Source: an archaeon BMS3Abin17 (lineage in GTDB: Archaea; Nanobdellota; Nanobdellia; Pacearchaeales; GW2011-AR1). From it: a stretch of 64,000 nt of DNA. Within the stretch, counting starts at the first letter, position 1; the number at the start of each line of letters is the position of its first letter. Position numbers and translations under genes: made by a program. The notes under the pieces are model-generated. The model searched no databases, was not told the DNA's origin, and saw only the letters and a program-made list of their open reading frames with translations. The stretch covers positions 1,605 to 65,604 of the forward strand of contig BDTJ01000044.1 of the NCBI GenBank assembly GCA_002897655.1. Direction: 5' to 3'. Of this stretch, positions 17,430 through 52,000 are shown piece after piece.

Positions 17430-17440
17430 TTAATTACAAC

Positions 17441-17879: not shown

Positions 17880-18123
17880 ACCAATCGAGGCCATAGTGGT
17901 TATTCTAAAAATTGGTTATACAAATATTTATAAGGTAAAGGATTTCTTGAGCTCTATGAAACAAGTTGGGAAAATATTTAGCCTATTTAGTTTGTTAAGT
18001 GAAGAAGAAAGGCAAAAATTGACATCATTACAAAAAACTGAACAAACAACTGAAGGAAGAGTAAGAAGATTTAATGAGACAATTGATGGAAAAACTCAGA
18101 AAATGACATCCTCCGCACCCTAA
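17863..18123 (+). CDS. hypothetical protein
   Basis: 86-aa ORF between hicA and the IS element. Confidence 0.3.
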   Translation: MKRCYRPIEAIVVILKIGYTNIYKVKDFLSSMKQVGKIFSLFSLLSEEERQKLTSLQKTEQTTEGRVRRFNETIDGKTQKMTSSAP

Positions 18124-18124
18124 A

Positions 18125-18790: not shown

Positions 18791-19169
18791 ACTTAAGAAA
18801 AAATGATTTTGGAGTTGAAGAAATTCCTGATCACAATCTTTTTAGATATATGATACGATTGGGTTGCCATGTTAGTACAGGAAGAATTAGAACTCCCCAT
18901 AGTTATATAACAAGGCAGGAGATTTATGTATTTACTAATTCAAAATTAGACGTGCCTGGTATCCCAAAATTAGACGAATTTCTTTCAAAATACAAGCAGT
19001 AATTTATTTAATATCACTGGAAAATCCAAAGGATTTCCTTCATAAATAAGCAAAGGTTTTTAAACCAATTTTGGGTATCTTTTATTATTGTAAAGTTGTT
19101 AAAGTCATCATTGGTGCAAACTATTCAATTTTACCTAATTAAACTCAAAACCCTAACAAATCCTCAAAA

Positions 19170-19376
19170 ATGCATGTTTTACAGCCTAAACATTCTAAAT
19201 TAAGTCAAAAAGACAATGAAGAACTATTGGGTAAATTAAATGTTTCTAAAGCTCAATTACCTAAAATTTTCTCAGATGACCCTGCACTGCCTGAAGGCTG
19301 TGATGTGGGAGATATAATCAAGATAGAAAAGAAAAATGATGATAAGATTGACACTTATTATAGGGTAGTGGTTTAA
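19170..19376 (+). CDS. rpoH: DNA-directed RNA polymerase subunit H (Rpb5 homologue)
   Basis: RpoH-like 68-aa sequence directly upstream of rpoB, as in the conserved archaeal operon. Confidence 0.75.
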   Translation: MHVLQPKHSKLSQKDNEELLGKLNVSKAQLPKIFSDDPALPEGCDVGDIIKIEKKNDDKIDTYYRVVV

Positions 19377-19488
19377 TGGTTGACAATAAAATTAAAAACT
19401 TCAAAATTGAAATTTTGAGAGTCCCAGAAATTTTTAATTTCTGTGATTTTAAGCCTCCAATTTGCATGGGGAAGAGAAATAAAGACAA

Positions 19489-28644: not shown

Positions 28645-28956
28645 ATGTTTGCCCTGTTAAAAGATTCATGGTATTTTCTTGTTGGCTGGGAAAGTGAGGA
28701 TATATTAGAAAAAACAGGTATTGTGAATGAATCAAAAAAGAATGGAGTATTTGATTGTTTAAAAATAGTTGTGGATAATGATTCATTTTATAGTGCAGAA
28801 AAGTACGAAAAGGATATTCCAGAAAACGGTAAAAAAGTGAATGTGAAATATAGAGAAAGGATATCTGGCATTATTGAGCTGGGATTGGATAAGTTCTTTG
28901 GTCAGGATATTCCAAAAAAACACAATAAATTGCTGGAAATAAAAGTATTAGAATAA
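28645..28956 (+). CDS. hypothetical protein
   Basis: 103-aa ORF between rps7 and the EF-2 gene. Confidence 0.35.
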   Translation: MFALLKDSWYFLVGWESEDILEKTGIVNESKKNGVFDCLKIVVDNDSFYSAEKYEKDIPENGKKVNVKYRERISGIIELGLDKFFGQDIPKKHNKLLEIKVLE

Positions 28957-29033
28957 AAGTTTCTTAAGAAACTTTTATAAAGTAATTTTAGCAACAATAT
29001 TTATTCTAAGTGTTTTAGAGGAGTTATAATATT

Positions 29034-31190
29034 ATGGCAGAAAAAGACATACAGAATTTAATGAAAAAGCAGGACAAAATAAGAAACATAGCAATTGCTG
29101 CACATATTGACCACGGAAAAACAACTTTTTCTGATAATCTTTTAGCAGGTGCAGGGATGATGTCTGAAGAATTAGCAGGAAAACAACTTGCGCTTGATTT
29201 TCACGAAGATGAAGCTGCAAGAGGAATCACAATTGATTCTGCATCTGTAAGCATGATTCACAATATAGGAGGAGAGGATTATTTGATTAATTTAATTGAT
29301 ACTCCTGGACATGTTGATTTTGGAGGAGATGTTACAAGAGCAATGAGGGCTGTTGATGGCTGCATAACTTTGTGCTGTGCTGTCGAGGGAATAATGCCTC
29401 AGACAGAAACTGTTCTCAGGCAAGCCTTGAAAGAATTAGTAAAACCTGTTTTATTCATAAACAAAGTTGACAGATTAATCAAAGAAGTTAAATTAACCCC
29501 CCAGGCAATGGAGCAGAAGTTTGTCTCTATTATAAATCATATTAATGAATTAATTGAGAACATTGCTCCTGAAGGATATAAAGAAAAATGGAAAGTTAGT
29601 GTTGGAGAAGGAAGTGTTGCTTTTGGTTCTGCATTCCATAACTGGGCACTTAGTTTCCCTTATATGAAAGAAAAGGGAATCACATTCAAAGATGTTATTG
29701 ATGCTTATGAAAATGATAATCATAAAGAATTGGCAAAAAAAGCCCCGTTGCATGAAGTTGTGCTTGCAATGTCTGTAAAACATCACCCAAACCCTGTTGA
29801 TGCACAGAAATACAGAATCCCAAAAATCTGGCATGGAGATATTGAATCTGAATTAGGAAAATCACTAATTAATTGTGATGCAAATGGGGAGGTTGCATTT
29901 GTCCCAATCAAAATTGTTGTTGACAAGCATGCAGGAGAGGTTGCTGCAGGAAGAATATTCTCAGGAACTATTAAACAAGGAGATGAAGTCTATATGAATC
30001 TTGCAAAAAGAAATGTAAGAGTCCAGCAAGTTTCTGTATACAAGGGTGCCCAGAGAGTTATTGTAGACGAGGTTAGTGCAGGAAACATTATTGGGGTTGT
30101 TGGATTAAAGGATGTTTTTACAGGTGAGACTGTAAGTAAAAATCCAATAGAGCCATTTGAAGCAATTAAGCATTTATTTGAGCCAGTTGTTACAAAATCT
30201 ATTGAAGTAAAAAAAGCTGCAGACTTGCCAAAACTTGTTGAAACTTTGAAACAAGTTGGAAAAGAAGACCCTTCTATAAAAGTTACAATCAACGAGCAGA
30301 CAGGAGAGAGTTTAATCTCAGGCATGGGGGAGTTACACCTGGAAATTATTGAAAACAGGATTAAAACAGAAAAAGGATTAGATGTTTATACCTCTGCCCC
30401 CATAATTGTATATAGGGAAACAGTAAGTAAAGAGTCCTCTGCAACAGAAGGGAAAAGCCCAAACAAGCACAATAGCTTTTTTATTAGAGTAGAACCCTTA
30501 GAAGATAATATTTATAACGCAATCCAAAGCGGAGATATAAGTGAAGGAAGAATTAAAAAGAAAGATAAATCTCTTGCAGAAGTTTTTTCTAATCTTGGAT
30601 GGAGTGGAGATGAAATAAGAAATATTAGAGATATCTATAAGGGAAATGTTTTCATGGATGAGACAAGAGGAGAGGTTCATATTGGAGAAGTTATTGAGAT
30701 GGTGTTAGATGCTTTTGAAATGGTTATGGACCAGGGTCCTTTGGCACGTGAGCCTTGCATAAAGATGAAAGTATCCTTAGTTGATATTAAACTCCACGAA
30801 GATGCTATACACAGAGGTCCTGCACAAGTTTATCCTGCTGTGAGAGAAGCAATTACAGAGTCTATGAAAAATGGAAATGCGACAATGCTTGAGCCATTGC
30901 AGATACATTTAATTGAAATGCCAGATAAATTCTTAAGTGCTGTGACTAAATTAGTTGGTGGCAAAAGGGGACAGATGATTGAAGTCAAGCAAGAAGGAAC
31001 AAATGCGACCATGAAGGCAAAGATTCCTGTAGCAGAGATGATTGGTTGGAGCAATGATTTACGTTCTGCAACAGAAGGCAGGGGAGTCTCTTCTTTAATG
31101 GAACAAGAGTTTGAGAGAGTCCCAGCAAGTTTAAAGGCAGAGGTTGTTAGAAAAATCAGAGACAGAAAAGGTCTTGCTGAGAATCAGTAA
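29034..31190 (+). CDS. fusA: elongation factor 2 (aEF-2)
   Basis: G-domain motifs AHIDHGKTT, DTPGH and NKVD, and a C-terminal diphthamide-region fold. Confidence 0.95.
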   Translation: MAEKDIQNLMKKQDKIRNIAIAAHIDHGKTTFSDNLLAGAGMMSEELAGKQLALDFHEDEAARGITIDSASVSMIHNIGGEDYLINLIDTPGHVDFGGDVTRAMRAVDGCITLCCAVEGIMPQTETVLRQALKELVKPVLFINKVDRLIKEVKLTPQAMEQKFVSIINHINELIENIAPEGYKEKWKVSVGEGSVAFGSAFHNWALSFPYMKEKGITFKDVIDAYENDNHKELAKKAPLHEVVLAMSVKHHPNPVDAQKYRIPKIWHGDIESELGKSLINCDANGEVAFVPIKIVVDKHAGEVAAGRIFSGTIKQGDEVYMNLAKRNVRVQQVSVYKGAQRVIVDEVSAGNIIGVVGLKDVFTGETVSKNPIEPFEAIKHLFEPVVTKSIEVKKAADLPKLVETLKQVGKEDPSIKVTINEQTGESLISGMGELHLEIIENRIKTEKGLDVYTSAPIIVYRETVSKESSATEGKSPNKHNSFFIRVEPLEDNIYNAIQSGDISEGRIKKKDKSLAEVFSNLGWSGDEIRNIRDIYKGNVFMDETRGEVHIGEVIEMVLDAFEMVMDQGPLAREPCIKMKVSLVDIKLHEDAIHRGPAQVYPAVREAITESMKNGNATMLEPLQIHLIEMPDKFLSAVTKLVGGKRGQMIEVKQEGTNATMKAKIPVAEMIGWSNDLRSATEGRGVSSLMEQEFERVPASLKAEVVRKIRDRKGLAENQ

Positions 31191-31775: not shown

Positions 31776-33059
31776 ATGGCAAAAGAAAAACAAAACATGA
31801 ATGTTGTGTTCGTGGGACACGTCGACGCTGGAAAGTCAACAATAGTTGGAAGAACAATGTTTGACTCAGGTCTTGTTCCTGAACAAGAGATGAAAAAACT
31901 TAGGGAAGAGGCTGAAAAGCATGGTAAAGCTGGTTTTGAATTTGCATATATTATGGATAATATTAAAGAAGAGAGAGAAAGAGGAGTTACAATTGACTTG
32001 TCATACAAGAAGCTTATGACTCAAAAATGGCAGATAACAATAATTGATGCTCCTGGGCACAGAGACTTTGTTAAGAACATGATTACTGGTGCTTCTCAAG
32101 CAGATTCTGCTTTCTTAGTTATTGCTGCACAATCAGGAGTTCAGCCACAAACTACAGAGCACTTATGGTTGCTAAGAACAATGGGTGTAAAAAACCTTGC
32201 TGTTGCAATTAACAAGATGGATTCTGTGGATTATGACGAGGCAAAATTCAACAAAGTTAAGGAAGATGTTGGAAAATTGCTAAAGGGAGTTGGAATTGAT
32301 CCTGAAAAAACTACTTTTATTGCATGCTCAGGATTACAGGGAGATAATATTGTTAAAAAATCAGATAAAATGGCCTGGTATAAAGGACCAACAATAATAG
32401 AACAGTTTGATTTGTTCCCTGCTCCTGAATTGCCAACAAATTTGCCAATGAGAATGCCTGTTCAGGATGTTTATGAAATCACAGGTATTGGAACAGTTCC
32501 TGTTGGAAAAATAGAAACAGGAGTTATGAAATCTGGTATGAAAGTTAAAGTACTTCCTGGGAGAACAGGTGAAGGAATTGAGGGAGAGGTTAAAACAATA
32601 GAAATGCATCATGAAATACTTTCTGATGCACAAGCAGGAGACAATGTAGGAATTAATATTAGAGGAGTAGGTAAAAAAGATATTGCAAGAGGAGATGTTA
32701 TCTGTGAGGCATCAAACCCAGTTCCAATAGTAGAAGAGTTTATTGGGACAATCACAGTAATTAATCATCCAACAGTTCTTGCTAAAGGTTATACTCCAGT
32801 ATTCCATATTCACACAGCACAAGTTCCTTGCCAGTTTACAGAATTAATTGCTCAAATTGATCCAAGAACAGGTGAGGTTATTAAAGAAAATCCTGACTTC
32901 CTAAAAAACGGAGATACAGCAAAAGTTAGAATAAAACCCCAGGGAAATGTTGCTTTAGAGACACAAAAAGATAATGCTTATATGAGTAAGTTTGCAGTAA
33001 GAGATGCAGGTGCAACTGTTGCTGCTGGAATGTGCACTGAGATAGTTAAAAAGAAATAA
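31776..33059 (+). CDS. tuf: elongation factor 1-alpha
   Basis: GHVDAGKST, DAPGH and NKMD motifs. Confidence 0.95.
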   Translation: MAKEKQNMNVVFVGHVDAGKSTIVGRTMFDSGLVPEQEMKKLREEAEKHGKAGFEFAYIMDNIKEERERGVTIDLSYKKLMTQKWQITIIDAPGHRDFVKNMITGASQADSAFLVIAAQSGVQPQTTEHLWLLRTMGVKNLAVAINKMDSVDYDEAKFNKVKEDVGKLLKGVGIDPEKTTFIACSGLQGDNIVKKSDKMAWYKGPTIIEQFDLFPAPELPTNLPMRMPVQDVYEITGIGTVPVGKIETGVMKSGMKVKVLPGRTGEGIEGEVKTIEMHHEILSDAQAGDNVGINIRGVGKKDIARGDVICEASNPVPIVEEFIGTITVINHPTVLAKGYTPVFHIHTAQVPCQFTELIAQIDPRTGEVIKENPDFLKNGDTAKVRIKPQGNVALETQKDNAYMSKFAVRDAGATVAAGMCTEIVKKK

Positions 33060-33574: not shown

Positions 33575-34159
33575 TTGATTATTTCCAAAAACATGCTACA
33601 CAAAGACATGCAAAAGCATGAGATTGAGGATGCACTTGCAGATAAAGGTGATTTTGTTAAGATAGAGAGATTAACTAGCTTTCTAAAAGAAGAATTACCT
33701 ATAGATATAAAGAAATTTGTTTATCTAAAACTTGCAGAGCTTTATGAAAAAACAGGAATGTTGGTTGATTCTGCAAAGATGTATGATAATGCTGCTCTTA
33801 TCTCTATTGCTTTTTCAGAAAAGATTAAGCATTATGTTAAAGAGACAGAATTGCATATCAAGGCAGGTCATTTTGACATGGCTGAAGAGTCAATGAAAAA
33901 AGCAATGGGAAATGCAAATGTAGTTGAAAAAAATGAGATTTATATTACTATTAAAGATTTTTATAAAAGGCAGGCAGAAGCATATGAGAGAGATATAAGA
34001 AGAGGGCATGCTGCAAGAATCTATGAAAAGGTATTGGAGATGAACATATCTGACTTAGAACGATTGGAGATAAGGAAAAAATTACTTGTTTTATACGAAA
34101 AACTTGGAAGATTTAAAGAATATAAGCTGTTAAAGGGATTAGACAATGGAAATCCCTAA
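33575..34159 (+). CDS. hypothetical helical (TPR-like) protein
   Basis: 194 aa, alpha-helical composition. Overlaps the next ORF by 14 nt. Confidence 0.4.
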   Translation: MIISKNMLHKDMQKHEIEDALADKGDFVKIERLTSFLKEELPIDIKKFVYLKLAELYEKTGMLVDSAKMYDNAALISIAFSEKIKHYVKETELHIKAGHFDMAEESMKKAMGNANVVEKNEIYITIKDFYKRQAEAYERDIRRGHAARIYEKVLEMNISDLERLEIRKKLLVLYEKLGRFKEYKLLKGLDNGNP

Positions 34160-34451
34160 ATCTATTAAGGTTAATACTGGTGAACAAAGAGAAGTTCAAC
34201 CAAAAATTGATGCATTTTTTAAATCAATATATGAGGATATAAGCACAAAAGATGAATGTTCATTCAATCATTCTGATTTTGAGATTAAATTACAAGGATT
34301 ATATGATTATCCTGAAACTATATTAAACGATAAAATCCATTATTGTTCTTACAAAGGGAGGGTTGTAGGAATTGTTATTGAGGCTAGAACAGAACATAAC
34401 TATGTTAATTTTGACTTTTTTAGGAAAAATTTAGAGAATCTTTTAGATTAA
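34146..34451 (+). CDS. hypothetical protein
   Basis: 101-aa ORF, translationally coupled to the upstream gene. Confidence 0.35.
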   Translation: MEIPKSIKVNTGEQREVQPKIDAFFKSIYEDISTKDECSFNHSDFEIKLQGLYDYPETILNDKIHYCSYKGRVVGIVIEARTEHNYVNFDFFRKNLENLLD

Positions 34452-34556
34452 AACAAACACAGTCCGAATAATCTCAAACTAACCGAATAGTTTTCTTTCT
34501 GTCCAAGAAGTGTACGAAAAGTAAAGGGTTAAAAATAAGGATTTCTTGAGAAATAA

Positions 34557-37500
34557 ATGGGAAAAAACCTATTTAATGAAAAGACTATTGAAAAGAATAT
34601 AGCTAAAATAGAGCCAACAGCCAAACAAAGTACTGCTTCTAAAAGATGGATAAAATTAATAGAAACTAATCAGCTTCAAAATGAGAAATCAGCTTATATA
34701 GAATTTGCCAATACAATTCTTAGGGATTTGTTAAATTATAATATTAATATAGAAGAACTGAAACACGAAGAAAATTATATGGAGTTCTTATTTAAAGATA
34801 GTTCTAAAAGTAATCTTGTTGTTTTTGAAGCAAAAGGAACAAAAACTAAAGATTTATGGGCTCCCCAAGGAAGAAGTGTAAAAATAAAAGAAACTCCTGT
34901 GAATCAAATTAATTATTATTTAATGCATAATAAAATACCTTATGGGGTTTTAACTAATTATAAGGAATTTGTTTTATTTAAAAGAGAAGAAGGAGATTCA
35001 AAATTTCATAAGATTGATTTTTTAGAGATTAAGAATAATCAAGACAAATTAAAAGAATTTATTTTTATCTTTTCTAAAGAAAGTTTTGAGAAAGATGATA
35101 CCACAAAATTATATAAGGATTCTATAGTAGAAGAAAGAAATTTAACAAAAGAGTTTTATAAATTATATCATGAAACAAGACTTATGATTCTTAAAGAATT
35201 TAAAGAAAGTGAATTAGAAAATGAAATCTGCTTACATTGTACTCAATTATTTCTAAATAGATTAATGTTTATCTTCTTTGCAGAAGATACCAATTTACTT
35301 GATAAGAGATATTTTGAGATTAAACTATTAGAAGTTCTTGATAAAAGCAGTGGAGTAATAGATGGACACACAAATTATATTTTTGGAAAAATAAAAAGTA
35401 TCTTTAGAGAATTAGATAAAGAAATACCAAAACAAATAAAGGGTTTTAATGGTGAATTATTTAAAAAAGAAATTGATGGTAGATTATCTTTTAAAGATTA
35501 TAGAAGTAAACCTTTTTTTAATGAAGTAAAACAGAGTTATAGACTTGACAAAAATATAGAATTATACGAGAATGATAAGAAGATTTTTAACAAACATAAA
35601 AATAGATTAAGCAAAATAATAGAGAATATATTACTTATGGCTTCTTTTGATTTTAAATCAGAAGTTAATGTTAATATTTTAGGGCATATATTTGAACAAT
35701 CAATTTCTGATATAGAAAATTTAAAAGAAGAAAGAATATCTAAAAGAAAACAAGAAGGGGTCTTTTATACTCCTGAATATGTAACTGAGTATATTTGTAA
35801 GAATACAATAATACCTTACTTATCAAAAAATGGAACTAATGATATTAATGAATTAATAGATGAATATTCTAATAATATAGAAGAATTAGAGAAAAAATTT
35901 AAATCAATAAAAATTTTAGATTCTGCTTGTGGCTCTGGGGCTTTTCTAATTAAAGCAACAGAAGTTTTATTTGAAATCTTTGAAAAGATACAATTTGTTA
36001 AAGAAAATTATGGGGATTATGAAGCAAAAAGGGGTTTAAAGAGAAAAAGTAATTTTAAAGGACAATTAACTTTTAAGAAATGGGATGAAAAAGATGAGAT
36101 TAAAAATATTATAGAAAATAATATCTATGGAGTAGATATTAATGAGGAATCAGTTGAGATAACTAAATTATCATTATTCTTAAAGATAGCAAGAAAGAAT
36201 AAAAAATTGATTGACTTATCTGGCAATATCAAACAAGGAAATAGTTTAGTTAGTGATGATAAAATAGATAAGAACTTAGCTTTTGATTGGAACAAAAATT
36301 TTCCAGAGATTATGGATAATGGTGGTTTTGATGTTGTTATAGGTAACCCTCCTTATGTGTTCACAAGAGAAGTAGAGTTTAATGATAAATTTAAGGAATA
36401 TATAGCAAATAATTATCTTAATGCAAAAGATTCTATTTCAAAGAGCCATGCAAGACAATCTGGAAAGATTAATCTTTATTCTCTTTTCTTAATAAAGGGT
36501 AAGGATTTATTAAGAGATAATGGAGTTATTAGTTTTATAATTCCTAATAATCTCTTGAGAACAACTACTTATGATATTGTTAGAAAACAACTTTTAGATA
36601 ATTTTGATATTTCTGAAATAGTGGATATGGGAACAGGAGTTTTTGAAGGAGTTACAGCTTCAACAATTATTATAAAAATGAGGAAAGATAGTAATAAAGA
36701 AAGGAGAAATAAAAATTTAATTGAAATAATACCTAACTTTGAGAACTTAAGAAAGAAAAATAAAATAGAACAAATAAATTTTCTAAAAAATACAAGTTAT
36801 GCGTTCAATATTGTTTCAAATAAATCTGATAGAAAATTATTAGATAAGATTATAGAAGGTTGTATAGACCTGGGTGATATAATCACTATTCACGCTGGAG
36901 GAATTGCAACAGGAAAAAACAAAAAAGGGATGATTGAGAATTGGAAGAAAAGTGAAAAACATAAACCTATGTTAGAAGGAAAAGATATAAAACCTTTTTA
37001 TCCTGTTTTTTCTGAAAGATATATTTTATATGAAAAAAAGCTACTTTATAGAGCAAGAGAAGAATCTATATTTTTGAACCCAGAAAAATTAATCACTCAA
37101 AGGATAAGTGGAGGATTAAAACCTCTTGTTACAAGTTATGATAATGAAAAATATTACACGTTCAATTCTACTAACACAATATTATCAAAAAATAATGAAC
37201 ACTCATTAAAATATATTCTAGCTCTATTAAATTCAAGATTAATTAATTGGTATTATGTAAGTAAGTTTACAAATAAGTCAAATTTAACTGTTAATATCTC
37301 TAAAACATTTTTAGAAAAGATACCTATAAAAAAAATATCTCCAGAACAACAAAAGCCATTTATTGAAAAATCTGATTTTATGATAGATAAAAATAAAAAA
37401 TTTTATGAAATAAAAAAGAAATTCATAAAGTTAGTTAAGTATAAATATAACTTAGATAAAATCTCACGAAAGTTAGATACATTTTACAAACTTAATTTTA

Positions 37501-37706
37501 AAGAATTTATTAGTGAAATACAAAATAAAAATAAAGTAATGAGTATAGAAAAAGAAGCTGAGTTAATGGATTTTTTTGAAAAGAACAAAAAAGAAGTTTT
37601 AGAATTAGTTAATGAAGTTTCTAAAACAGAAAGAGAAATAGATGAGATGGTTTACAAGCTCTATGGGATAACAGACAAAGAAAAAGAGATTATTGAAAAG
37701 TCTTAA
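34557..37706 (+). CDS. Type IIG restriction-modification enzyme (MmeI-like): N-terminal PD-ExK endonuclease, gamma-class N6-adenine methyltransferase and C-terminal target-recognition region
   Basis: D81-x9-E91-x-K93 has the same spacing as the MmeI catalytic D-x9-E-x-K. MTase motif X (GVFYTPEYV), motif I (ILDSACGSGAFLI) and motif IV (NPPY). Length 1049 aa. Confidence 0.8.
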   Translation: MGKNLFNEKTIEKNIAKIEPTAKQSTASKRWIKLIETNQLQNEKSAYIEFANTILRDLLNYNINIEELKHEENYMEFLFKDSSKSNLVVFEAKGTKTKDLWAPQGRSVKIKETPVNQINYYLMHNKIPYGVLTNYKEFVLFKREEGDSKFHKIDFLEIKNNQDKLKEFIFIFSKESFEKDDTTKLYKDSIVEERNLTKEFYKLYHETRLMILKEFKESELENEICLHCTQLFLNRLMFIFFAEDTNLLDKRYFEIKLLEVLDKSSGVIDGHTNYIFGKIKSIFRELDKEIPKQIKGFNGELFKKEIDGRLSFKDYRSKPFFNEVKQSYRLDKNIELYENDKKIFNKHKNRLSKIIENILLMASFDFKSEVNVNILGHIFEQSISDIENLKEERISKRKQEGVFYTPEYVTEYICKNTIIPYLSKNGTNDINELIDEYSNNIEELEKKFKSIKILDSACGSGAFLIKATEVLFEIFEKIQFVKENYGDYEAKRGLKRKSNFKGQLTFKKWDEKDEIKNIIENNIYGVDINEESVEITKLSLFLKIARKNKKLIDLSGNIKQGNSLVSDDKIDKNLAFDWNKNFPEIMDNGGFDVVIGNPPYVFTREVEFNDKFKEYIANNYLNAKDSISKSHARQSGKINLYSLFLIKGKDLLRDNGVISFIIPNNLLRTTTYDIVRKQLLDNFDISEIVDMGTGVFEGVTASTIIIKMRKDSNKERRNKNLIEIIPNFENLRKKNKIEQINFLKNTSYAFNIVSNKSDRKLLDKIIEGCIDLGDIITIHAGGIATGKNKKGMIENWKKSEKHKPMLEGKDIKPFYPVFSERYILYEKKLLYRAREESIFLNPEKLITQRISGGLKPLVTSYDNEKYYTFNSTNTILSKNNEHSLKYILALLNSRLINWYYVSKFTNKSNLTVNISKTFLEKIPIKKISPEQQKPFIEKSDFMIDKNKKFYEIKKKFIKLVKYKYNLDKISRKLDTFYKLNFKEFISEIQNKNKVMSIEKEAELMDFFEKNKKEVLELVNEVSKTEREIDEMVYKLYGITDKEKEIIEKS

Positions 37707-38893
37707 TCTTCTTCAACATCCTTCCGTTTACTTAATGATAATCTAAAATCCCGGATAATATCAACCATCTTTTTAAGTTCATTATCAATATTCCCCCCAA
37801 CAACCTTGCTATTTAATCTCGGATAACAAATCATTGAAAGTTCTTCGTATAGTCCTTTATCCTTCATTAACTGAATAAACTTTTCTTTATTCTCACCTTC
37901 TGGCATTACAATCTTATCAAACTCTTTAACAGAACATTTCTTGTTTGAACCATAAACAATATCAACCCCAAACTGTTTTGCATATTTTATCAAATTATCT
38001 TTAAATTCTTCTTCTGCTTTTTTTAATTCTGCTTGTTTAGTTTTAACTTCTGAATATTCATCTACTAATTTAACTCCTTCATCTTCCTTGAATTTTTTAA
38101 TATCTTCAATTTTTTCTAATTCAACTTCGTGTTTAAAACTTGGGCATTGTTCTTTGTAAACACAATAATCACAAAGTGCAGATTGTTTTCTTGGAAATTC
38201 TTTAGCATTTTCAATTTCTTTTATTCTTTCAATAACATCTTGTTGTAATTTCTCCAACTGCTCATCTGTTCTTTCTGAAATAGCATCTTTGTTAAAAGCC
38301 AACATATGCCAAATCAATTTAACAGATTTAGCATCTGGAAATTTGTCTTTAACCCAAACAGAATAAAGAGCAAGTTGCCTGTCTGAATCAGCTTCTCCTT
38401 GATCCTTCATTCTTGCATTTGTTTTATAATCACAAACAAAATAATTTCCTTTATTATCACAACCTAACTTATCTATCCTAACATGCCACTGGTTTCCATC
38501 AGAAAGGGTCATTCTATCGGTTGTCTCTAATCCTAAGATTGTCATCTCTTCAAACGGTTTCATTCTTTCATAATAATGAGTAATAAACTTCTCACCCATT
38601 TTCTTATAGTTATTAGCAGTAAGTTTTTCTTTCTCTGCTTTAACAATTAGAATATCTTCAGAATAATTTTTATCCCACAAATCTCTATAAAACTTAATTA
38701 AAACATTCAAGGCAACTCTTTTCTTAAACTTCTTTAATTTATACAAATGTTCTAAAGTTTGATGAACTATCTCTCCCATAAACGCTTCTATTGTTGTAGG
38801 AACATTAACTTTAACTTTATCAATATATCTTAATTTATATTGGTAAGGACAATTTTCAAAACAAGAAACTCTGGAGTGTGAATAGGCTGTCAT
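37703..38893 (-). CDS. Cas4-like PD-(D/E)xK nuclease with a 4-Cys Fe-S cluster signature and an uncharacterised ~150-aa C-terminal extension (start set at MTAYSHSR...)
   Basis: YSHSRVSCFENCPYQYKLRY N-terminal motif. VCDYK D/ExK motif. C-terminal CDYCVYKEQC (Cx2Cx5C) combined with an N-terminal Cys, the Cas4/AddB Fe-S arrangement. Start adjusted away from the overlapping MYSQT... extension. Confidence 0.65.
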   Translation of the reverse strand: MTAYSHSRVSCFENCPYQYKLRYIDKVKVNVPTTIEAFMGEIVHQTLEHLYKLKKFKKRVALNVLIKFYRDLWDKNYSEDILIVKAEKEKLTANNYKKMGEKFITHYYERMKPFEEMTILGLETTDRMTLSDGNQWHVRIDKLGCDNKGNYFVCDYKTNARMKDQGEADSDRQLALYSVWVKDKFPDAKSVKLIWHMLAFNKDAISERTDEQLEKLQQDVIERIKEIENAKEFPRKQSALCDYCVYKEQCPSFKHEVELEKIEDIKKFKEDEGVKLVDEYSEVKTKQAELKKAEEEFKDNLIKYAKQFGVDIVYGSNKKCSVKEFDKIVMPEGENKEKFIQLMKDKGLYEELSMICYPRLNSKVVGGNIDNELKKMVDIIRDFRLSLSKRKDVEED

Positions 38894-38894
38894 T

Positions 38895-39680
38895 TTAATA
38901 TTTATCCGCTTTCTTTGGATAGATAACCCCCACAACAATATATGTTTTGAATCTATAATGTGTTCCAACAACAAAATAAAAATCTCTCTTGTTTGGGAGT
39001 ACATTAAAAAATTTATCCTTTACTTTTTCAAATACTACTTTTTCATCTTTGTATTTTCCCTGTTCCCTATATTTATCACAATTCCTATATAGTGCTATAA
39101 GCTCCCAATCCTCACACATAATTTTATGTTGGATAGGGCAAGATTCTGAGCAATTAAACTTATACGAAAAAAGATTTTTGGGAATCCATATTTTTACTGC
39201 AGACTCTCCATCAATTAATGTTGTTTGTTTTCCTTTCTCTTTAATCTTTTTATAATTTTCATTAGCCTCTTCCACAAAATCAATTAGTTTGTTAGGTTTT
39301 ATTATTCCTAAGGATACTTCTCTAGGATTTTTAGCATAAAGTTCTTCTAAAGAAATTATCTTTTGTTCTATTAATTCTTTAAGTTCTTTAAATGACGCTG
39401 GACCCAAGTCTTTAATTGTTTTTGTAATAATCTTACGACTTTCTGGTCTATGGTCAGAAGGTTCATCACTTTCAGTTTCATACTCTATCCAATTTTTCTT
39501 CTTGAAACTTTTCTCATTCCAAAATACTTCAAATGGTACAGGATATATTCTTCTTAATTCTCCCTTATCTGTTATTCCAGCTACACATACAAGATGTTCA
39601 TACTTTTTACTTACTATTGGATAAGTTTTTGTTAATACTAATAATTTTTCTTTCATTTTCATAAATTGTTTACTTTCCAA
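38895..39680 (-). CDS. hypothetical Cys-rich protein (CSESCPIQHKIMC...C cluster), middle gene of the cassette
   Basis: 261-aa ORF. Its stop lies 1 nt from the start of the nuclease gene, and it overlaps the upstream DUF488 gene by 22 nt. Confidence 0.45.
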   Translation of the reverse strand: MESKQFMKMKEKLLVLTKTYPIVSKKYEHLVCVAGITDKGELRRIYPVPFEVFWNEKSFKKKNWIEYETESDEPSDHRPESRKIITKTIKDLGPASFKELKELIEQKIISLEELYAKNPREVSLGIIKPNKLIDFVEEANENYKKIKEKGKQTTLIDGESAVKIWIPKNLFSYKFNCSESCPIQHKIMCEDWELIALYRNCDKYREQGKYKDEKVVFEKVKDKFFNVLPNKRDFYFVVGTHYRFKTYIVVGVIYPKKADKY

Positions 39681-40510
39681 CCTCTCTCCGCTAGTCGTTC
39701 AGCAATTATGCTCCTGTGACATGTTTTAAAATCTTTTTCAAAACACAACAATACTGTTTTTTTCCTTCTCGCTCTTCCTTCAATGTCTGAGATATTTTCT
39801 AAGACATCTGGGTCTTTTATATGTTTTTTATATTCTCTAAAAAATCTTTCATAATCCATGTCCTTATATAATTGATGTCTCACTTCTTTAGGAGAACCTA
39901 ATTGAGGCATATGTTTGTAAGTAATCCCAACTTCTTTTAATTTAGAACTTAGAATTGTTTTAGAAAATCCATTCTTTCTACTTAATGGAAGTTCTCTAAC
40001 ATCAATTAATTGTTGTACATTACTATCTTTAAGTTTCTTAATGAATTTTTCTATAGTGTATCCCTCATACCCAATAGTATAAATTGTATCATTTTCAGAA
40101 TTCCAAAAAAGATTGCCTCCAATCTTTATTCGTTTTAGTCCAATATCTTTTTCTAATAATCTAACCCATTTATTATTAGGGTTTTTTTGATGAAGATTTA
40201 ATTTATCCCTAATTTGTGTCCAAGTTAAACCAGCAGGATGTCTTTCAAGTATATTCTTTATAGAATCTTTAAATTCATCATAAAACATTTCTTCATCATT
40301 TTTACTTAGATTTTTTTTGGAAAGTGGTTTTAAAAACAATAAATCTTTTTTAATTTCATCTTGCAATTCAACTCCCTCTTTCCATCCTAATTGTTTTATT
40401 CTATCAGTAGGAATTACCAAAACCCATTTTACATATTTTTCATAATTAGGGTCATCCTTTTTTCTAGAAGATTGTTTTTGAAGTTTCATATCTTTTATCT
40501 TGGTACCCAT
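39659..40510 (-). CDS. DUF488-domain protein with an N-terminal ~130-aa extension (possible DNA-binding)
   Basis: C-terminal half matches the DUF488 signature (IYTIGYEG...LIDVRELP...LLCFEKDFKTCHRSIIAERL). Confidence 0.55.
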   Translation of the reverse strand: MGTKIKDMKLQKQSSRKKDDPNYEKYVKWVLVIPTDRIKQLGWKEGVELQDEIKKDLLFLKPLSKKNLSKNDEEMFYDEFKDSIKNILERHPAGLTWTQIRDKLNLHQKNPNNKWVRLLEKDIGLKRIKIGGNLFWNSENDTIYTIGYEGYTIEKFIKKLKDSNVQQLIDVRELPLSRKNGFSKTILSSKLKEVGITYKHMPQLGSPKEVRHQLYKDMDYERFFREYKKHIKDPDVLENISDIEGRARRKKTVLLCFEKDFKTCHRSIIAERLAERGWKVNNL

Positions 40511-40586
40511 TATTTAAAAGCTTATTGGTACCCACACCATATATATTTCTGGGTACCCAAATGTTTATAAAGGTCTGGGTACCCAT
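40501..40586. promoter_or_regulatory. four phased GGTACCCA boxes (24-26 nt spacing), each followed by an AT-rich TATA-like segment, in the divergent promoter between the DUF488 cassette and the transposase
   Basis: GGTACCCA at 40502, 40528, 40552 and 40578. The first copy overlaps the cassette's start codon. Confidence 0.5.
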
Positions 40587-40592
40587 TATATT

Positions 40593-41570
40593 GTGGTGAT
40601 AAGATATGACACTATGGAACAACAAACAAAAATATTCCAGAACACAGAAAACTCAAAACCAATCATAGCTTTGCAAAAGAACAAATATACTTTAGAGCAA
40701 GAAAAAGAGAGATTCATCAACAATATGTGTGATTTCATAGAACCACTCAATTTTGAGCAATTACAGGTTATGGGAAGACCAAGAGCTGATTTTAAGGGTA
40801 TAATAAAGGCAATTTTGTTGATGTCTTATAATAGCATGTCCTACAGGAGAACTCAATCAGATTTAAGAAAGATGCATGAAGAAGGATTAATTCAATATAT
40901 TCCTCCAAAAAGTACATTAAATGATTATGTTAATAATGAGAATACTAAAGGATTAATTGAAAGACTAATACAAATATCAGCGTTATTCTTTAATGAAAAT
41001 GAAGATACAACTATTTTAGATTCTACTTGGTTTGGTCAAAGAATGTATTCTGGAGGTTACAGAAAAGTTTATGATAAGAAAAATGCTCCATTGCAAAAAG
41101 TTAGAAAGCTTCATATTGCTTGTTTAAAAAATAGTAAGGTTATTGCTTATGCTAAAGCCACGGTTGGAACAAAAAATGACAGTCCTTTATTTAATGAAAT
41201 TGTCAATGCTATTGTAAAAAATGGTTTCCATATTAAAACAGTTTTGGCGGATGCTGGTTACTCAAGCAAAAACAATTATGCACTTTGTAAAGAACTTGGA
41301 ATTTTGAATGTTTTTATTGACTTCAAGAAGAATGCTACACTAAGGAGAGCTAAGAGTGATTTATGGAGAGAGAAACTTAGATTGTATAAAGAACAAAAAG
41401 AAATCTGGAATCAAACTTACAGATTTAGAGTAATTGTGGAGGGAATTTTTTCAGCAATTAAGAAAAAAAATATTAATTATCTTCGTTCTCGGAAGGAGAT
41501 TGCTCAGGATGTTGAGGTTCTTCTGAAGGCTCTGGTTTACAATTTGACGATAATTGGGAAATATTCTTAA
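40593..41570 (+). CDS. IS5/IS4-superfamily DDE transposase
   Basis: DDE triad regions ILDSTW, LADAGYSS and VEGIFSAIKK. Length 325 aa. Confidence 0.7.
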   Translation: MVIRYDTMEQQTKIFQNTENSKPIIALQKNKYTLEQEKERFINNMCDFIEPLNFEQLQVMGRPRADFKGIIKAILLMSYNSMSYRRTQSDLRKMHEEGLIQYIPPKSTLNDYVNNENTKGLIERLIQISALFFNENEDTTILDSTWFGQRMYSGGYRKVYDKKNAPLQKVRKLHIACLKNSKVIAYAKATVGTKNDSPLFNEIVNAIVKNGFHIKTVLADAGYSSKNNYALCKELGILNVFIDFKKNATLRRAKSDLWREKLRLYKEQKEIWNQTYRFRVIVEGIFSAIKKKNINYLRSRKEIAQDVEVLLKALVYNLTIIGKYS

Positions 41571-42201
41571 CTTCTTCAATTCCAGCAAAAAGAATCTTGT
41601 TATTTGTCCAATCCATCTTACAAGGAGTATAAAATCTAATTTCCTTTATTTTTGGTTCAAAATTGTCCCCTGAAATTTCTATTATTGCAAAATATCTTTT
41701 ATCTTCACAAATAAAATTTCTACCTCCTGTAGAAGAAAAAATAACTTCTTTTGTTGCACTATCAATCCAAAATAAATCACAAAATTCCCATCCCCCTTTA
41801 GGTGAAATATCTTTATTCTCTTTAAAAATAGGAATTAATTGATTAATATCTGATACTAAATTTATCCTCTCAGGGTCTATTCTAAACCCCATATCTCTTG
41901 GAGCACTAGACCATTTTAATACGTCTGGTTCATTCTTATCTAGCACATTATTTCTCTCTTCAGATTTAACAGACAACAGTTTTACCTTACAATTTCTAGC
42001 AACTGTTTTACCCTCATTAACAATTTTTATACGAAAAAGCATTCCCATTGAATTTAAAAAAGGGTAAATAGAATAAGGTTCGTAATTTCCAAATCCAATT
42101 TTTATAAGAGGTCTATCTTTCCAATCCCAAAATCTTTTTCCAAATAATGCAACAACAACAGCCAAAAAAGTTATTATTATTAAAATTACTGTTAAAACCA
42201 T
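41473..42201 (-). CDS. membrane-anchored hypothetical protein; acidic low-complexity C-terminal tail encoded within the transposase 3' region
   Basis: N-terminal TM helix followed by a soluble domain. Its last ~33 codons overlap the transposase C-terminus convergently. Confidence 0.4.
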   Translation of the reverse strand: MVLTVILIIITFLAVVVALFGKRFWDWKDRPLIKIGFGNYEPYSIYPFLNSMGMLFRIKIVNEGKTVARNCKVKLLSVKSEERNNVLDKNEPDVLKWSSAPRDMGFRIDPERINLVSDINQLIPIFKENKDISPKGGWEFCDLFWIDSATKEVIFSSTGGRNFICEDKRYFAIIEISGDNFEPKIKEIRFYTPCKMDWTNNKILFAGIEEVKNISQLSSNCKPEPSEEPQHPEQSPSENEDN

Positions 42202-42563
42202 AAAAGAGTTTAGAGAAAGAAGTTTTTAATGATTATTGTATTTCTTTATTCGGACACTATTTGGATTGTTTTAACTTTTCGGACTGTGTTATTAAAACAG
42301 CAAACTTTAAAAACTCATTCTGGTATTAATATATTATTAGAAGAATATCGATTAAAATAAGTAGATTAATCAATCACATTCACGATCACATTGTTAATTT
42401 AGCATATTAATGCTCTTTACGAATGCAGAACTGACAAAAATTAGTCTGATATTTTTCTACGATAGAAAATTTGTGTAAATAGGAATTTTCTGGGACAGAA
42501 AACATTTTGTTTTCTATAGAAATCAATATGATTTCATTCAATTAAATAAGGAAAAACAAAAAC

Positions 42564-43730
42564 ATGGCAAAAATAAGTCCAGTATCAATAAAATACATGA
42601 TACACGCGAACTTCACAGCTGAAGGTGCTTTGGAAAAACCTGATGTAATCGGAGCTATTTTTGGACAGACAGAAGGATTGCTTGGAGCAGACTTAGAAAT
42701 GAGAGAATTGCAAAAAGAAGGAAAAATCGGAAGAATTGAAGTTGATTTGAAGAGAGATGGAAAGCAGACTACAGGAATTATTAAGATTCCTACTGCGTTA
42801 GACCAGTCAGAGACAACTCTTATTGCTGCTGCAGTAGAGACAATAGAGAGAATCGGACCGAGTGATGCTCAGATTGAGATAGAAAGAATAGAAGATGTCA
42901 GAGGAAGCAAAAGAGATTACATAATTGAAAGGGCAAAGAAGCTCATGACAAACATACAAGGTTCTACAGATTCAAGAGAGATTTCAAATGAGATTAAGTT
43001 CTCTGCCAGAACTGCAAGTATCAGCGAGTATGGCAATGAAAAACTTCCCTGCGGGGACTTGTCTGGAAAAGAAATAGTTGTAGTTGAAGGAAGAGCAGAT
43101 GTCCTTAACCTGATGAGGAATGGGGTTAACAATGTTATAGCAATGAATGGAACAAAACTTCCTGACTCAATAAGAGGATTAAGCAAGGAAAAAGATATAA
43201 TCCTTTTTGTTGATGGTGACAGAGGTGGAAAGCTAATCATAAAAAACGTTGTTGATAATGCAGAAGTCAAGTATATTGCAATTGCACCTGATGGGAAAGA
43301 AGTCGAAGAGCTTAATGGAAAAGAAATTTTAATGAATTTAAGAAAAAAGGTTCCAATAGAGGAGTTTGAAAAAAGCTCCTCTAAAAGAGCTCCTAAAAGA
43401 ATAGAGAAAAAACAAGAAGAAGAAACTCCTAAAAATAAACAAATAGAATTAAACTCAAAGAATAAATCAATATTAAAAGAGCTTTCTGACAGGAATAATG
43501 GAAGTGGAAAGGCTATCCTATTAGACGATAATCTTAAAGAAATTAAAAAGGTCTCAATCAAGGGATTGGAAAATACAATATATCGAATGAGAGAAAGACC
43601 CAGCATAATTATAATTGACGGAACAGTCACTGTGCCAATACTAAGAGATTCAGAAGATGCAGGTGTTCAGGCAATTGTGGCAAAAAACTTCACAACAACA
43701 GACACAAATATTGAATTACTTAGTCTGTGA
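42564..43730 (+). CDS. dnaG: DNA primase DnaG, archaeal type (TOPRIM)
   Basis: Archaeal DnaG N-terminus and a TOPRIM region (VVVEGRADVLNL...DGDRGG). Confidence 0.85.
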   Translation: MAKISPVSIKYMIHANFTAEGALEKPDVIGAIFGQTEGLLGADLEMRELQKEGKIGRIEVDLKRDGKQTTGIIKIPTALDQSETTLIAAAVETIERIGPSDAQIEIERIEDVRGSKRDYIIERAKKLMTNIQGSTDSREISNEIKFSARTASISEYGNEKLPCGDLSGKEIVVVEGRADVLNLMRNGVNNVIAMNGTKLPDSIRGLSKEKDIILFVDGDRGGKLIIKNVVDNAEVKYIAIAPDGKEVEELNGKEILMNLRKKVPIEEFEKSSSKRAPKRIEKKQEEETPKNKQIELNSKNKSILKELSDRNNGSGKAILLDDNLKEIKKVSIKGLENTIYRMRERPSIIIIDGTVTVPILRDSEDAGVQAIVAKNFTTTDTNIELLSL

Positions 43731-46862: not shown

Positions 46863-47219
46863 TCATTCTAAACCTAAACTTATCTTAATAGCTAAATCAA
46901 CTTTATTCATGATAAGATTATCAAGATGACTTAACTTCTTAATAATTCTTCTTTTATCAATTGTTCTTATTTGATTAAGTAAAACTACAGAATCTTTTTC
47001 TAAATTTGAATCACTTTTTGATAAAATTACATTAGTTGGATATTCTTTTTCATAAACTTTAGAGGTTATAGGGGCAACAATTGTTAATGGACTAAATTTA
47101 TTTGATATGTTATTCTGGATAATAAGCGCTGGCCTAATTTTTCCTTGTTCCACTCCTTTAACTGGCTCAAAATTAACCAGAAATATATCTCCTCTTAATA
47201 TTTTTGCTACCATTCCCAA
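46863..47219 (-). CDS. mazF: MazF/PemK-family endoribonuclease toxin
   Basis: RGDIFLVNFEPVKGVEQGKIRPALII ... SPLTIVAPITS motifs. Confidence 0.8.
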   Translation of the reverse strand: MGMVAKILRGDIFLVNFEPVKGVEQGKIRPALIIQNNISNKFSPLTIVAPITSKVYEKEYPTNVILSKSDSNLEKDSVVLLNQIRTIDKRRIIKKLSHLDNLIMNKVDLAIKISLGLE

Positions 47220-47440
47220 TCTAATTCAGCATCAATAGCTTCCAATTCTTTGTTAATTTTTAGGCTATCTTCTGCCATTGCCTTGCACCCTTCTATTAAT
47301 AATTTCTCTTGTTTTCTTTTTTGCTCTTCTGCAACTTTCATTAAATTCAAGATAATCTGCTCGTAAGTTTCTTTATTTGTCTTTAATCTATCTAAAGCAT
47401 TTTTCACATTTTCATTAAGCTGGATTGTTGTTACCATCAT
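47207..47440 (-). CDS. putative antitoxin partner of MazF
   Basis: 77-aa helical ORF overlapping mazF by 13 nt, in the upstream position. Confidence 0.5.
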   Translation of the reverse strand: MMVTTIQLNENVKNALDRLKTNKETYEQIILNLMKVAEEQKRKQEKLLIEGCKAMAEDSLKINKELEAIDAELDWEW

Positions 47441-49061: not shown

Positions 49062-52000
49062 TTAAACCTTCAAAGTAATTATCTTTGAGACTCCGTCATG
49101 CATGCTTACACCATAAAGATTTGAGGCATTTGTAATCACTTCGTCATTGTGGGTTATTACTATATACTGGCCTTTTTGCATGTATTTTCTGAGAAGGCCT
49201 GCAAGTCTCTCAGAATTTCTTTTATCCAATGCTGCATCAATCTCATCAAGTATGTAAAAACAATACGGGCTGTATTCCTGAATTGCAAAGATAAGGGATA
49301 ATGCCACAATAGTCTGTTCTCCTCCTGAAAGAGAGGTAACATCAAAGTATTTTCCATGCCCTGTCTTGACAATTATATTCACCCCCCCTTCAAAAGGGTC
49401 TTTTCTATTTTCCAATTCTAATGAAACCCGCCCCTTTGTGCTTAATTGAGAGAAATTCCTTGAGAAGGTCTCATTTAATGAATCAAGGGTTTTAAAGAAA
49501 GTCTTTTTCTTTTTAATATCAATCTCATGAATAATCTTCATGATTCCTTCTTTTTCCTTGTTGATTATCTCTACTTTTTCTTTTATCAAGTCATATTCTT
49601 TTTTTATTGAATCATAGACTTCTAATGAACGCAGATTAACGGTTCCAATTTTTGATAATATTTCTTGTGTTCTTTCCAGCTTATGAATAAGAGACTCTTT
49701 TGTTGCTTTTATTATCTCAACATTTGGATATCCCAGCATATCTGTCTCTAAATTCTCAATTGCTGCATCAATCTTTGCTTTTTCTATTTTTAATAAATTA
49801 GTATCCTGCTCAAAATTATGAATTGAATTTTGCCTGGTCAAAATAAAAGACTCAAAATCCCTTATTTTCTTCTGCAGGCCTTCTCTTTCAGAGATTAGTT
49901 TTTGGAATTTTCTGGTAAGGGCCTCTTCCTTGCCTTTTTTATCTTCTAAAAAACTCTCTTTTTCTTCAATACTCTCCTTTAGGTCAGAAACATCCTCTTT
50001 GATATCTTCTTCATCACTAGTTAATTGTTTTAAAGCTGCTTTTGAACGGTCTAATTCTCTTTTCTTAAATGAAGTCTCTGAATCCAAGGTCTCTTTGCTT
50101 CTCATAGATATCTCCTGAATCTCTATTCTTGCAGTCTCATATTTTTGCTCCAGATTAGAATTCCTGTCAGATTTGCTTTCAAGAGATTTTCTTCTTTTTT
50201 CTAATTCAATCATCTCTTTCTTAGAGTCCTCAATTTTTTCATGCAACATTTTTATCTGCTCTTTTTTATCATTGATTCCGAATATTTTAATCTGGTCAGA
50301 CTTTCTACTAGATATCTCTGAATCTATTTCATCTATCTTTTTGTTTAAGATTGCTTTGCTATTGCCTATTTGCTTAAACTCTTTTTCTGATTCTTCTATT
50401 TGCTTTTTAAGATGGTTTATCCTTGGATTAACTTCTTTATGAATTGAAGAAATATGGTCTTTAGTTATCTTGCTTTTGCACAATGGACAAATGTCCATTT
50501 TTGAGATATTTTCCCTAATTTTATTTTGCTTGTCTATTTCATAGCTATTTGTGTAAGATATTTTTTCAAGCTCTTTTTCTCTTTTTTCCAAGTTTTCAAT
50601 CTTTTGTTTATTATTAGATAAGGAAACTTTAAGAGAGTCTAATTTGCCTGAATCTGTGTTTTTGTCAAATAATTCCCTTGTAAGAACCTCTATTTGCTTG
50701 ATTAAATAATCAGACTCTGTTTTATAACTCTGCAAAAGAGAGTTTTTGTCCTCCATTCTCTCTTTAATTGATTTTAATTCTGACTTAGTCATATAAAACT
50801 CTTTTCTTTGCTTTTCCAGATTATCAAGCTCTTGTTTTTTCTCTTCTATGTCTTTTTGCTTTTTTGAAGCAGATGATTTAGAACTCTGCAGTTCTTTTAT
50901 TTCTGATTCTAAATCCCTTATTTTTTGAGCCAGATCTATTCTTTGATTTTCAACTTCAGAGAGCTTTCTTTCAGAATTATCCAACCTTACATTTAAACCA
51001 GCTAATTCTGCTCTTAAATTAGCTATTTCCTGGTTCAATTTTTCCTGCTCTATTCCAGTAGATTTTTGAATATTTTGGTTTATTGAACTTATTTTTGATT
51101 CAAAGCTTTCAATAGTAACCCTTGTATTTGTTATTATTTTTTTTATCTTATTTATCTCATTATCTTTTTCCAGAATTCGCTTGTCCATCTTTTCTCTTTC
51201 TCTTTTTCTATTTGTTAAATCAGAATGAATTATGCTTGCTCTGTATCTTTTGGCATCTTTTTCAAGTTTCTTAAATCTCAAGGCCTCCTGCCTTTCTCTT
51301 TCAAGATTATTCAAATATGCTGTTCTCTCCCTTAGTATTGATGAAACTTCTTTTAATTTATCCCCTGTTCTTTCTAATTCTTTCAGAGACTTTTGCTTTC
51401 TTACCTCATATATTGAGATTCCAGAAACCTCTTCTATTATTTTTCTTCTCTCTTCTGTATGCATTCTTACAAAATTCTGAATCTCTCCCTGCAAGATAAT
51501 ATTAAATCCATTAGGGTCTATTCCTGCCTGTGCCAATAAGGTCAACACCTCTTGTCTTGTCTTTGTCTCATTATTTATCCTGTAGATACTCTGCCCGTTT
51601 TTTCTTACAATCCTCTTTATTGAAATCTCATTATTATCTATAGAAAAAATCTTATCAGAGTTATCAAAAACAATCTCAACTGATGCTTCTTTTGCAGGAG
51701 ACAATGCCTTTGTTCCCAGAAATATCAGGTTTTTTGCTTTTGCTGCCCTCATTGACTTGATTGAGAGTCTTCCCAATACAAAACACAAAGCATCTGTTAT
51801 GTTTGAATTATGGACAAAGATATTATTAGCCAAAAAGTTGTGATGTTCATCTACACATAAATCATAAACCCACCCTTCTCCATTTATCTCGCTTATATCT
51901 GTTATTTCGTCCCAGAAAATATCAGAATACGCCAAAAAATTTAATTTTTTTATTAATTCAGAGTTTCCTTTAAACAATTGTTTTGACAATAACTGAAGAC

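Follow-up and report, generated by a model that had tools for sequence, protein, structure and literature searches.

Introduction

Unit transposons and transporter insertion sequences (IS), of which Tn5-like elements and IS1595-type transporter IS (tIS) are examples, hold a single transposase gene together with passenger genes inside one pair of inverted repeats. A target duplication of 9 bp is made by the IS903 group of the IS5 family (ISfinder). In archaea, DNA transposons carrying passengers were not detected in the survey of Krupovic et al. 2019 (PMC6563490), which listed casposons as a separate class. Tn7-like transposons with defence cargo have been described (Benler et al. 2021, PMC8649781), and an archaeal Tn7 was reported more recently (bioRxiv 10.1101/2025.07.27.667033). 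Here, we analyzed a stretch of 64,000 nt from a contig of 77 kb that belongs to BMS3Abin17, a DPANN archaeon sampled at a deep-sea sulfide deposit or vent chimney. This stretch is called the window in the following, and coordinates refer to positions in it. The window contains an island of exactly 7,835 bp (34456-42290), which we interpret as a unit (non-composite) DNA transposon that is moved by its own IS5-like DDE transposase and serves as a defence-gene shuttle. We assign this interpretation a probability of about 0.9. It is carried by direct observations, namely precise ends, a duplication of the target, empty as well as filled alleles within one population, and the pairing of transposase and ends across differing cargo.

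Results

Ends of the element and target duplication

Other assemblies of the same vent-chimney BMS3Abin17 population are ~100% identical to the window outside the island and define its borders. On the left side, five sequences (L002, L003, L004, L042, and L043) match the window to exactly 34455 and then diverge or end; up to this border, identity is 100% in three independent assemblies. On the right side, L007 starts at 42291, and the match of L008 begins exactly at the same position. At the breakpoints set in this way (34455/34456 and 42290/42291) the tips of the island form a perfect inverted repeat of 13 nt, AACACAGTCCGAA (34456-34468 on the forward and 42278-42290 on the reverse strand). 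The original prediction, which was made from the letters of the window, had proposed a mobile island of ~7.8 kb between imperfect inverted repeats sharing a 12-nt core. Both edge sequences are present where it had placed them, and the exact core measures 13 nt.

When the two 70-nt ends were aligned locally with gaps, the terminal repeat extended imperfectly to 36/35 nt with a score of 35, which was reached by none of 5000 random forward/reverse-complement pairs of 70-nt segments from the window (maximum 30, mean 14.2). The CCGAATA box that had been noticed as duplicated at both edges occurs seven times in the window compared to 1.9 expected occurrences, with three copies within the two ends, and none of 100 shuffles reached seven. 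The terminal 12-mer alone, searched in the window with up to two mismatches, was not significantly enriched, and no further real copies were found there. The weight of the repeat comes from its position, because it lies exactly at breakpoints that were set independently by the comparison of assemblies; for a 13-nt inverted match at two fixed junctions, the chance is ~7e-8. A search for target-site duplications just outside the repeats had been suggested as a check, and a 9-bp direct repeat, ATTAAAACA, adjoins both ends (Table 1), with a chance of ~1e-5.

Empty, filled, and alternative alleles

The empty site was found in two short contigs (L044 and L045). In these, the 101-aa open reading frame (ORF) is directly followed by the dnaG-like gene, and the 9-mer is present once, in the context ...TCTTTTAG-ATTAAAACA-GCAAACTTT.... 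The contigs join 34455 directly to 42300, and their BLAST pieces, corresponding to 33992-34455 and 42291-42942, overlap by exactly 9 nt. Compared with the window, they represent the classic empty/filled pair of a transposon that duplicates 9 bp of its target. We conclude that the element was recently mobile.

In other strains, a second, unrelated IS (IS-B) is located at exactly the same 9-mer and is likewise flanked by ATTAAAACA on both sides. IS-B has 15-nt inverted ends (GGGTTTGCGTATAAA), a DUF2080 ORF at its left, and the C-terminus of a Y-R-E-K-type transposase at its right. No real copies of its end were found in the window, and a search for full-length IS-B with the 59-aa transposase C-terminus revealed only fragments and one 66%-identical relative beside a DDE_3 ORF. 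Three alleles, i.e. empty, transposon, and IS-B, are present in one population. The presence of two elements at one 9-mer reflects either a hot spot or coincidence.

The transposase

The transposase of the element matches PF01609 with 69 bits at a cut-off of 23. D136, D213, and E276 as well as the Y-2-R-3-E-6-K motif (Y269-R272-E276-K283) are invariant in 24 homologues. More than 270 homologues with 65-82% identity were found, mostly in metagenome-assembled genomes of Pacearchaeota, Woesearchaeota, and Nanoarchaeota; more distant ones are located in L022 and L023 (52-56% identity). In a search of 1.84 billion cluster representatives, only 37 reached E <= 1e-30, beyond which identity falls sharply to ~30%. 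The transposase is thus a member of a small, compact clade. A scan of IMG/VR viral contigs with the transposase alignment gave no relatives, which leaves viral carriage unsupported.

The gene content that had been proposed for the island, consisting of a Type IIG restriction-modification (RM) gene, a three-gene cassette, the transposase gene, and a membrane-protein gene, was recovered. The status of the transposase gene as an independent passenger IS did not hold up; the gene is the element's own. An inner pair of inverted repeats or a duplication enclosing the transposase gene alone was searched for and not found, and an internal, independent IS was therefore dropped.

Four palindromic boxes of the type T(T/G)GGTACCCA at 40500, 40525, 40550, and 40576 occupy the divergent promoter region (40500-40585) between the DUF488 and transposase genes. 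The same four-box layout was found only in elements with a DUF488 gene divergent to the transposase gene (L012, L015, and L033), and the remaining elements carry palindromes of another kind in this region. The four boxes are probably an operator of the N-terminal region of the DUF488 protein.

Sister elements share ends and duplication length

All homologues with enough flanking DNA, including those of L022 and L023, reside inside elements with tips of the form AAC(A/T)(C/T)AGTCC. Perfect 9-bp duplications flank nine of the ten complete elements, the one in the window included, and the tenth has a match of 8/9. The duplications of the sister elements have no target sequence in common (Table 1). 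The element with the 8/9 match (L026), in which both ends are retained and the transposase gene is reduced to a fragment, is a non-autonomous deletion derivative of the family. The same ends in nine other complete elements thus bear out, together with the breakpoints, the duplication, and the empty alleles, the proposed mobile island bounded by inverted repeats.

Conservation extends over ~66 nt in the left ends of 10 elements, which contain four GTCCGAA-type boxes, and over ~45 nt in the right ends of 15 elements, which contain three. In the element of the window, the last two boxes of the left end (IRL) are degenerate (GTCCAAG and GTACGAA). The boxes change together within one element: GTCCCA is found throughout L012, and GTCCAT in L022 and L023. 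Such a coordinated change at both ends is expected if the boxes are binding sites that co-evolve with the transposase. In at least four loci (L015, L016, L023, and L025), the transposase gene ends ~45-75 bp from the tip of the right end (IRR). A left end within 700 bp upstream of the transposase gene was found in none of 15 loci, and a plain IS form free of cargo was not seen.

The contig that harbours the sister element L009 encodes a D5-type primase-helicase, a ParB-methylase fusion, a 1171-aa Gly_rich_2 protein, and many small ORFs on either side of the element (1-5504 and 11303-20957). It may be a virus or plasmid, which would let the transposon pass between cells. Four loci with homologues (L014, L016, L027, and L046) derive from bins labelled Bathyarchaeia, "bacterium", Dojkabacteria, or Parcubacteria. 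Considering also the neighbouring genes in the bins labelled bacterial that were checked (Parcubacteria P0009 and Dojkabacteria L027), the labels are due either to binning errors or to a spread beyond DPANN archaea, including bacteria of the candidate phyla radiation (CPR).

Cargo genes

The Type IIG enzyme additionally matches MmeI_N, HSDR_N_2, MmeI_hel, MmeI_Mtase, N6_Mtase, and TaqI_C as well as the PADLOC model REase_MTase_IIG (5e-69), and the GC content of its gene is 23.9%. According to these matches, one polypeptide would combine an N-terminal nuclease region, a gamma-class N6-adenine methyltransferase, and a TaqI_C-type specificity domain, which is the Type IIG layout. The gene for the PD-(D/E)XK nuclease recurs beside the 255-aa/DUF488 pair in L012, and in a shorter, 218-aa form in L015. 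The pair itself faces the transposase gene in the window, L012, L015, and L033, and shows the gene arrangement of PDC-M19, with A (DUF488) and B on adjacent, overlapping genes. No Pfam or NCBIfam match was obtained for the 255-aa protein, and no literature naming PDC-M19 was found. The 283-aa protein carries DUF488 at its C-terminus and an N-terminal region that is predicted, as read by eye, to bind DNA.

With its last ~33 codons, the gene for the 242-aa membrane-anchored protein overlaps the conserved 3' end of the transposase gene in antisense orientation. In L019 and L033, homologues with 44-50% identity are likewise encoded between the transposase gene and IRR. The remaining cargo differs between sister elements and comprises an NgoPII restriction enzyme with a cytosine methylase, SocA_Panacea, and DndB; GmrSD with an EcoRI-type methylase; a Type III-like helicase and methylase with AIPR; a PLD-SNF2 helicase with a Type IIG-like methylase; a Cas2-like protein and MazE; and a queuosine-salvage gene. 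Parts of toxin-antitoxin systems are among this cargo. A protein with a TnsA_N-like domain is apparent cargo in L012. Overall, the cargo of the family varies and is mostly devoted to defence, a role suggested by matches to hidden Markov models.

Genomic setting

The GC content is 27.1% in the element compared to 32.4% in the rest of the window, where no other segment of 7.8 kb is as low. The original prediction had placed the island where rps10 normally follows tuf. No Ribosomal_S10 domain was detected by Pfam in the scanned ORFs of the window (larger ORFs and concatenated small ORFs), in agreement with the stated lack of rps10. The proposed location had to be revised, as 1,396 bp and four ORFs separate the insertion from the stop codon of tuf, which lies upstream. 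These ORFs are present in every allele, and the empty allele is also devoid of rps10 between the 101-aa ORF and the dnaG-like Toprim gene. The absence of rps10 therefore reflects the gene order of this genome rather than an effect of the insertion, and the transposon neither replaced nor displaced rps10.

The window also harbours an IS200-like Y1 transposase gene, a HicB/HicA pair, a MazF toxin with a DUF7557 partner, and an SMC-like gene with a LAGLIDADG-domain intein (Table 1). A 197-aa protein with a GGDEF (diguanylate cyclase) domain is encoded at 58661-59254 on the reverse strand (Pfam 3e-36) of this DPANN archaeon; to our knowledge, GGDEF proteins are rare in archaea. Upstream of the EF-2 gene and directly past the stop codon of a 103-aa ORF lies a perfect 22-bp palindrome, AAAAGTTTCTTAAGAAACTTTT (28955-28976). 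It falls within a 26-nt reverse self-match (28953-28978) obtained by BLAST of the window.

Table 1 Features of the transposon, its surroundings, and related loci. Positions refer to the window unless a locus is named.
Feature	Position	Strand	Remarks
Left target-site duplication, 9 bp	34447-34455		ATTAAAACA; overlaps TAA stop codon of 101-aa ORF
Left end (IRL), ~66 nt	34456-34521	+	perfect 13-nt tip, AACACAGTCCGAA, plus four G/A-TCCGAA-type boxes in subterminal position
Type IIG restriction-modification enzyme, MmeI/Eco57I-like, 1049 aa	34557-37706	+	Pfam Eco57I 5.5e-39
PD-(D/E)XK nuclease, 396 aa, distantly Cas4/AddB-like	37703-38893	-	Pfam PDDEXK_1 4e-30; weak Cas4 and DruK matches
PDC-M19B-like protein, 255 aa (PADLOC candidate defence)	38895-39662	-	PADLOC PDC-M19B 5e-49
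DUF488 protein, 283 aa, PDC-M19A-like	39659-40510	-	Pfam DUF488 4e-32, DUF488-N3a; PADLOC PDC-M19A 1e-43
Transposase of the element, 318 aa, DDE_Tnp_1 (IS4/IS5 superfamily)	40614-41570	+	Pfam PF01609 6e-19
242-aa protein, one N-terminal transmembrane helix	41473-42201	-	between transposase gene and IRR
Right end (IRR), ~45 nt	42246-42290	-	perfect 13-nt tip, plus two additional boxes (ATCCAAA, GTCCGAA)
Right target-site duplication, 9 bp	42291-42299		ATTAAAACA
EF-2	29034-31190	+	
EF-1alpha (tuf)	31776-33059	+	stop codon at 33059
Four small ORFs (58, 80, 188, 101 aa)	between 33059 and 34452	mixed	
dnaG-like Toprim gene	42564-43730	+	
Mobile or selfish features: IS200-like Y1 transposase; HicB/HicA; MazF with DUF7557; intein-split SMC-like gene	18163-18603; 17441-17879; 46863-47440; 49062-53516	-; +; -; -	
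IS-B traces	L002:12681-12967; L008:1-204; L042 end		
Sister element L009			5.8 kb; duplication CCTTCTATT
Sister element L011			7.2 kb; duplication TGTTAGAAA
Sister element L012			10.1 kb; duplication TTCAATCAG
Sister element L015			10.2 kb; duplication TATTGATTT
Sister element L018			4.3 kb; duplication GTTATATTC
Sister element L019			6.1 kb; duplication GTTACAAAA
Sister element L021			4.8 kb; duplication GGTCCCAAC
Sister element L046			7.2 kb; duplication TATTTGTAA
Deletion derivative L026	L026:1843-2886		1.0 kb; duplication 8/9 match; both ends, transposase gene fragment only

Discussion

Alternative explanations

Two alternatives accept the ends and assign another role to the transposase. 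It may have been domesticated as a regulator of the defence cassette in a former transposon that is now immobile, and its single copy per genome, its 65-82% identity across many lineages, and its constant linkage to cargo, never in a simple IS, would fit such a role. A presence/absence polymorphism with identical flanks within one population and perfect duplications speak against an immobile element, and the invariant catalytic residues, the conservation of both ends, and the coordinated box changes rather indicate ongoing transposition, so that we regard domestication as very unlikely. Slightly less probable again is that the DDE gene is a passenger IS and that the outer repeats are served by a transposase acting in trans or since lost. 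In the window, the transposase gene is indeed not beside an end, as the membrane-protein gene intervenes before IRR, and its product stays below the IS5 cut-offs of NCBIfam. However, it lacks repeats or a duplication of its own, transposases of this clade occur together with these ends in at least 10 elements of unrelated cargo, the gene closely approaches the tip of IRR in at least four other loci, and the end boxes co-vary with the element.

Two further alternatives were weighed. A site-specific integrative element using ATTAAAACA as its attachment site would account for the arrival of two elements at one 9-mer, since the unrelated IS-B is flanked by it at the same position in other strains. 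Domain scans revealed no tyrosine or serine recombinase in the element, its sisters are flanked by nine differing 9-mers without shared sequence, and inverted terminal repeats combined with a duplication of fixed length are the signature of a DDE transposase; we therefore consider site-specific integration a highly improbable explanation. The least probable is a static, variable defence island in which the terminal match and the flanking repeat would be due to chance or represent regulatory motifs. Weak inverted repeats are common in AT-rich genomes, and the lack of enrichment of the 12-mer with two mismatches is in line with this. Yet the breakpoints coincide exactly with the tips of the repeat, empty alleles carry one 9-mer, nine other elements are flanked by 9-bp duplications of differing sequence that match perfectly or almost perfectly, and the joint chance probability is far below 1e-10, which makes a static island almost inconceivable.

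Among established categories, a composite transposon was rejected, as the element contains only one transposase gene and no long repeats, direct or inverted, were revealed by a repeat search. An integrase-type genomic island was likewise rejected: there is no recombinase, the only tRNA gene is at 17129, and the flanking 9-mers differ between elements.

Several observations weigh against the unit transposon. The best NCBIfam match of the transposase, NF033579 (IS5-family), reaches 93.3 bits at a cut-off of 140, other IS models score lower, and a sequence search of the Protein Data Bank with the transposase returned no relative of solved structure; its family placement accordingly draws on Pfam and motifs. 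The element appears to be present as a single copy in this genome, with the transposase cluster on two contigs of one locus. IS-B lies at the identical 9-mer in other strains, which could mean that the site is special beyond plain transposition. All compared sequences are metagenome assemblies, and transposition is deduced from sequences. Finally, a role in defence is putative for both the PDC-M19-like genes and the membrane protein.

Proposed mechanism and significance

For the unit transposon, we propose the following course of events. The transposase would bind the GTCCGAA-type boxes that are repeated in both ends (~66 nt on the left and ~45 nt on the right), pair the ends, and excise the element, as expected for IS4/IS5-type DDE transposases of PF01609. 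It would then cut the target with a 9-nt stagger and insert the element by cut-and-paste movement like other PF01609 transposases, in this case into the intergenic 9-mer ATTAAAACA between the 101-aa ORF and the dnaG-like gene. All DNA between the ends except for the transposase gene, namely the Type IIG RM gene, the PD-(D/E)XK/PDC-M19B/DUF488 cassette, and the gene for the membrane-anchored protein, would travel as a passenger.

The mechanism belongs to a known type. What sets the element apart is its host range, its end architecture, and a cargo that appears to be obligatory. In the literature searched, which did not cover ISfinder, no description of this family, which is widespread in DPANN archaea, was found. 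We tentatively propose, at somewhat less than even confidence, that the element is the first example of an undescribed family of cargo-carrying IS5-like DDE transposons in DPANN archaea. Members of this family would seemingly never occur as a bare IS; their multi-box ends and 9-bp duplications would frame interchangeable defence modules, provide a major exchange route for RM and immune systems in symbionts with tiny genomes, and might cross into CPR bacteria.

Cargo-carrying DNA transposons are central to bacterial gene flow, and the element provides a cleanly delimited archaeal example that was caught as an insertion polymorphism. With the end sequences and the duplication length defined, the rest of the family can be found automatically. 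Given exact ends, the cargo of hundreds of such elements could serve as a catalogue of DPANN defence genes, covering unstudied ones such as the PDC-M19-like DUF488 cassette and the membrane-anchored protein beside IRR. Additionally, a compact transposase of 318 aa with well-defined ends is a candidate genetic tool for archaea that lack such tools.

Comparison with known systems

The element resembles the IS5 family in its PF01609 DDE domain, the Y-2-R-3-E-6-K motif, the IS5-family model as best NCBIfam match, and short terminal inverted repeats. The 9-bp target duplication is shared with the IS903 group, a likeness in duplication length. In contrast to the IS5 family, the transposase scores below every IS5 model cut-off and shows ~30% identity outside its own clade, and the ends are long, contain multiple boxes, start with AACAC, and differ between left and right. 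Furthermore, members of the IS5 family are compact (0.8-1.6 kb) and have no passengers, whereas the element in the window spans 7,835 bp and sister elements with an intact transposase measure 4.3-10.2 kb and carry cargo.

With casposons, the element shares the archaeal host, inverted terminal repeats, a target duplication, and several genes, but neither a Cas1 integrase nor a family-B polymerase was detected in it by domain scans. The organization of unit transposons and tIS is found in full: one transposase gene, one pair of ends, passengers on both sides of the transposase gene, a target duplication, and an empty site in relatives. The difference from their bacterial representatives lies in the DPANN host and in cargo for defence rather than antibiotic resistance. 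Compared to Tn7-like transposons, the element is without TnsA/TnsB/TnsC according to domain scans and without att-site or guide-RNA targeting, relies on a single small DDE transposase, and is flanked by a duplication of 9 bp instead of 5 bp. Nevertheless, the variable, defence-dominated cargo follows the same ecological logic, which makes Tn7-like transposons the closest functional analogue in the literature searched.

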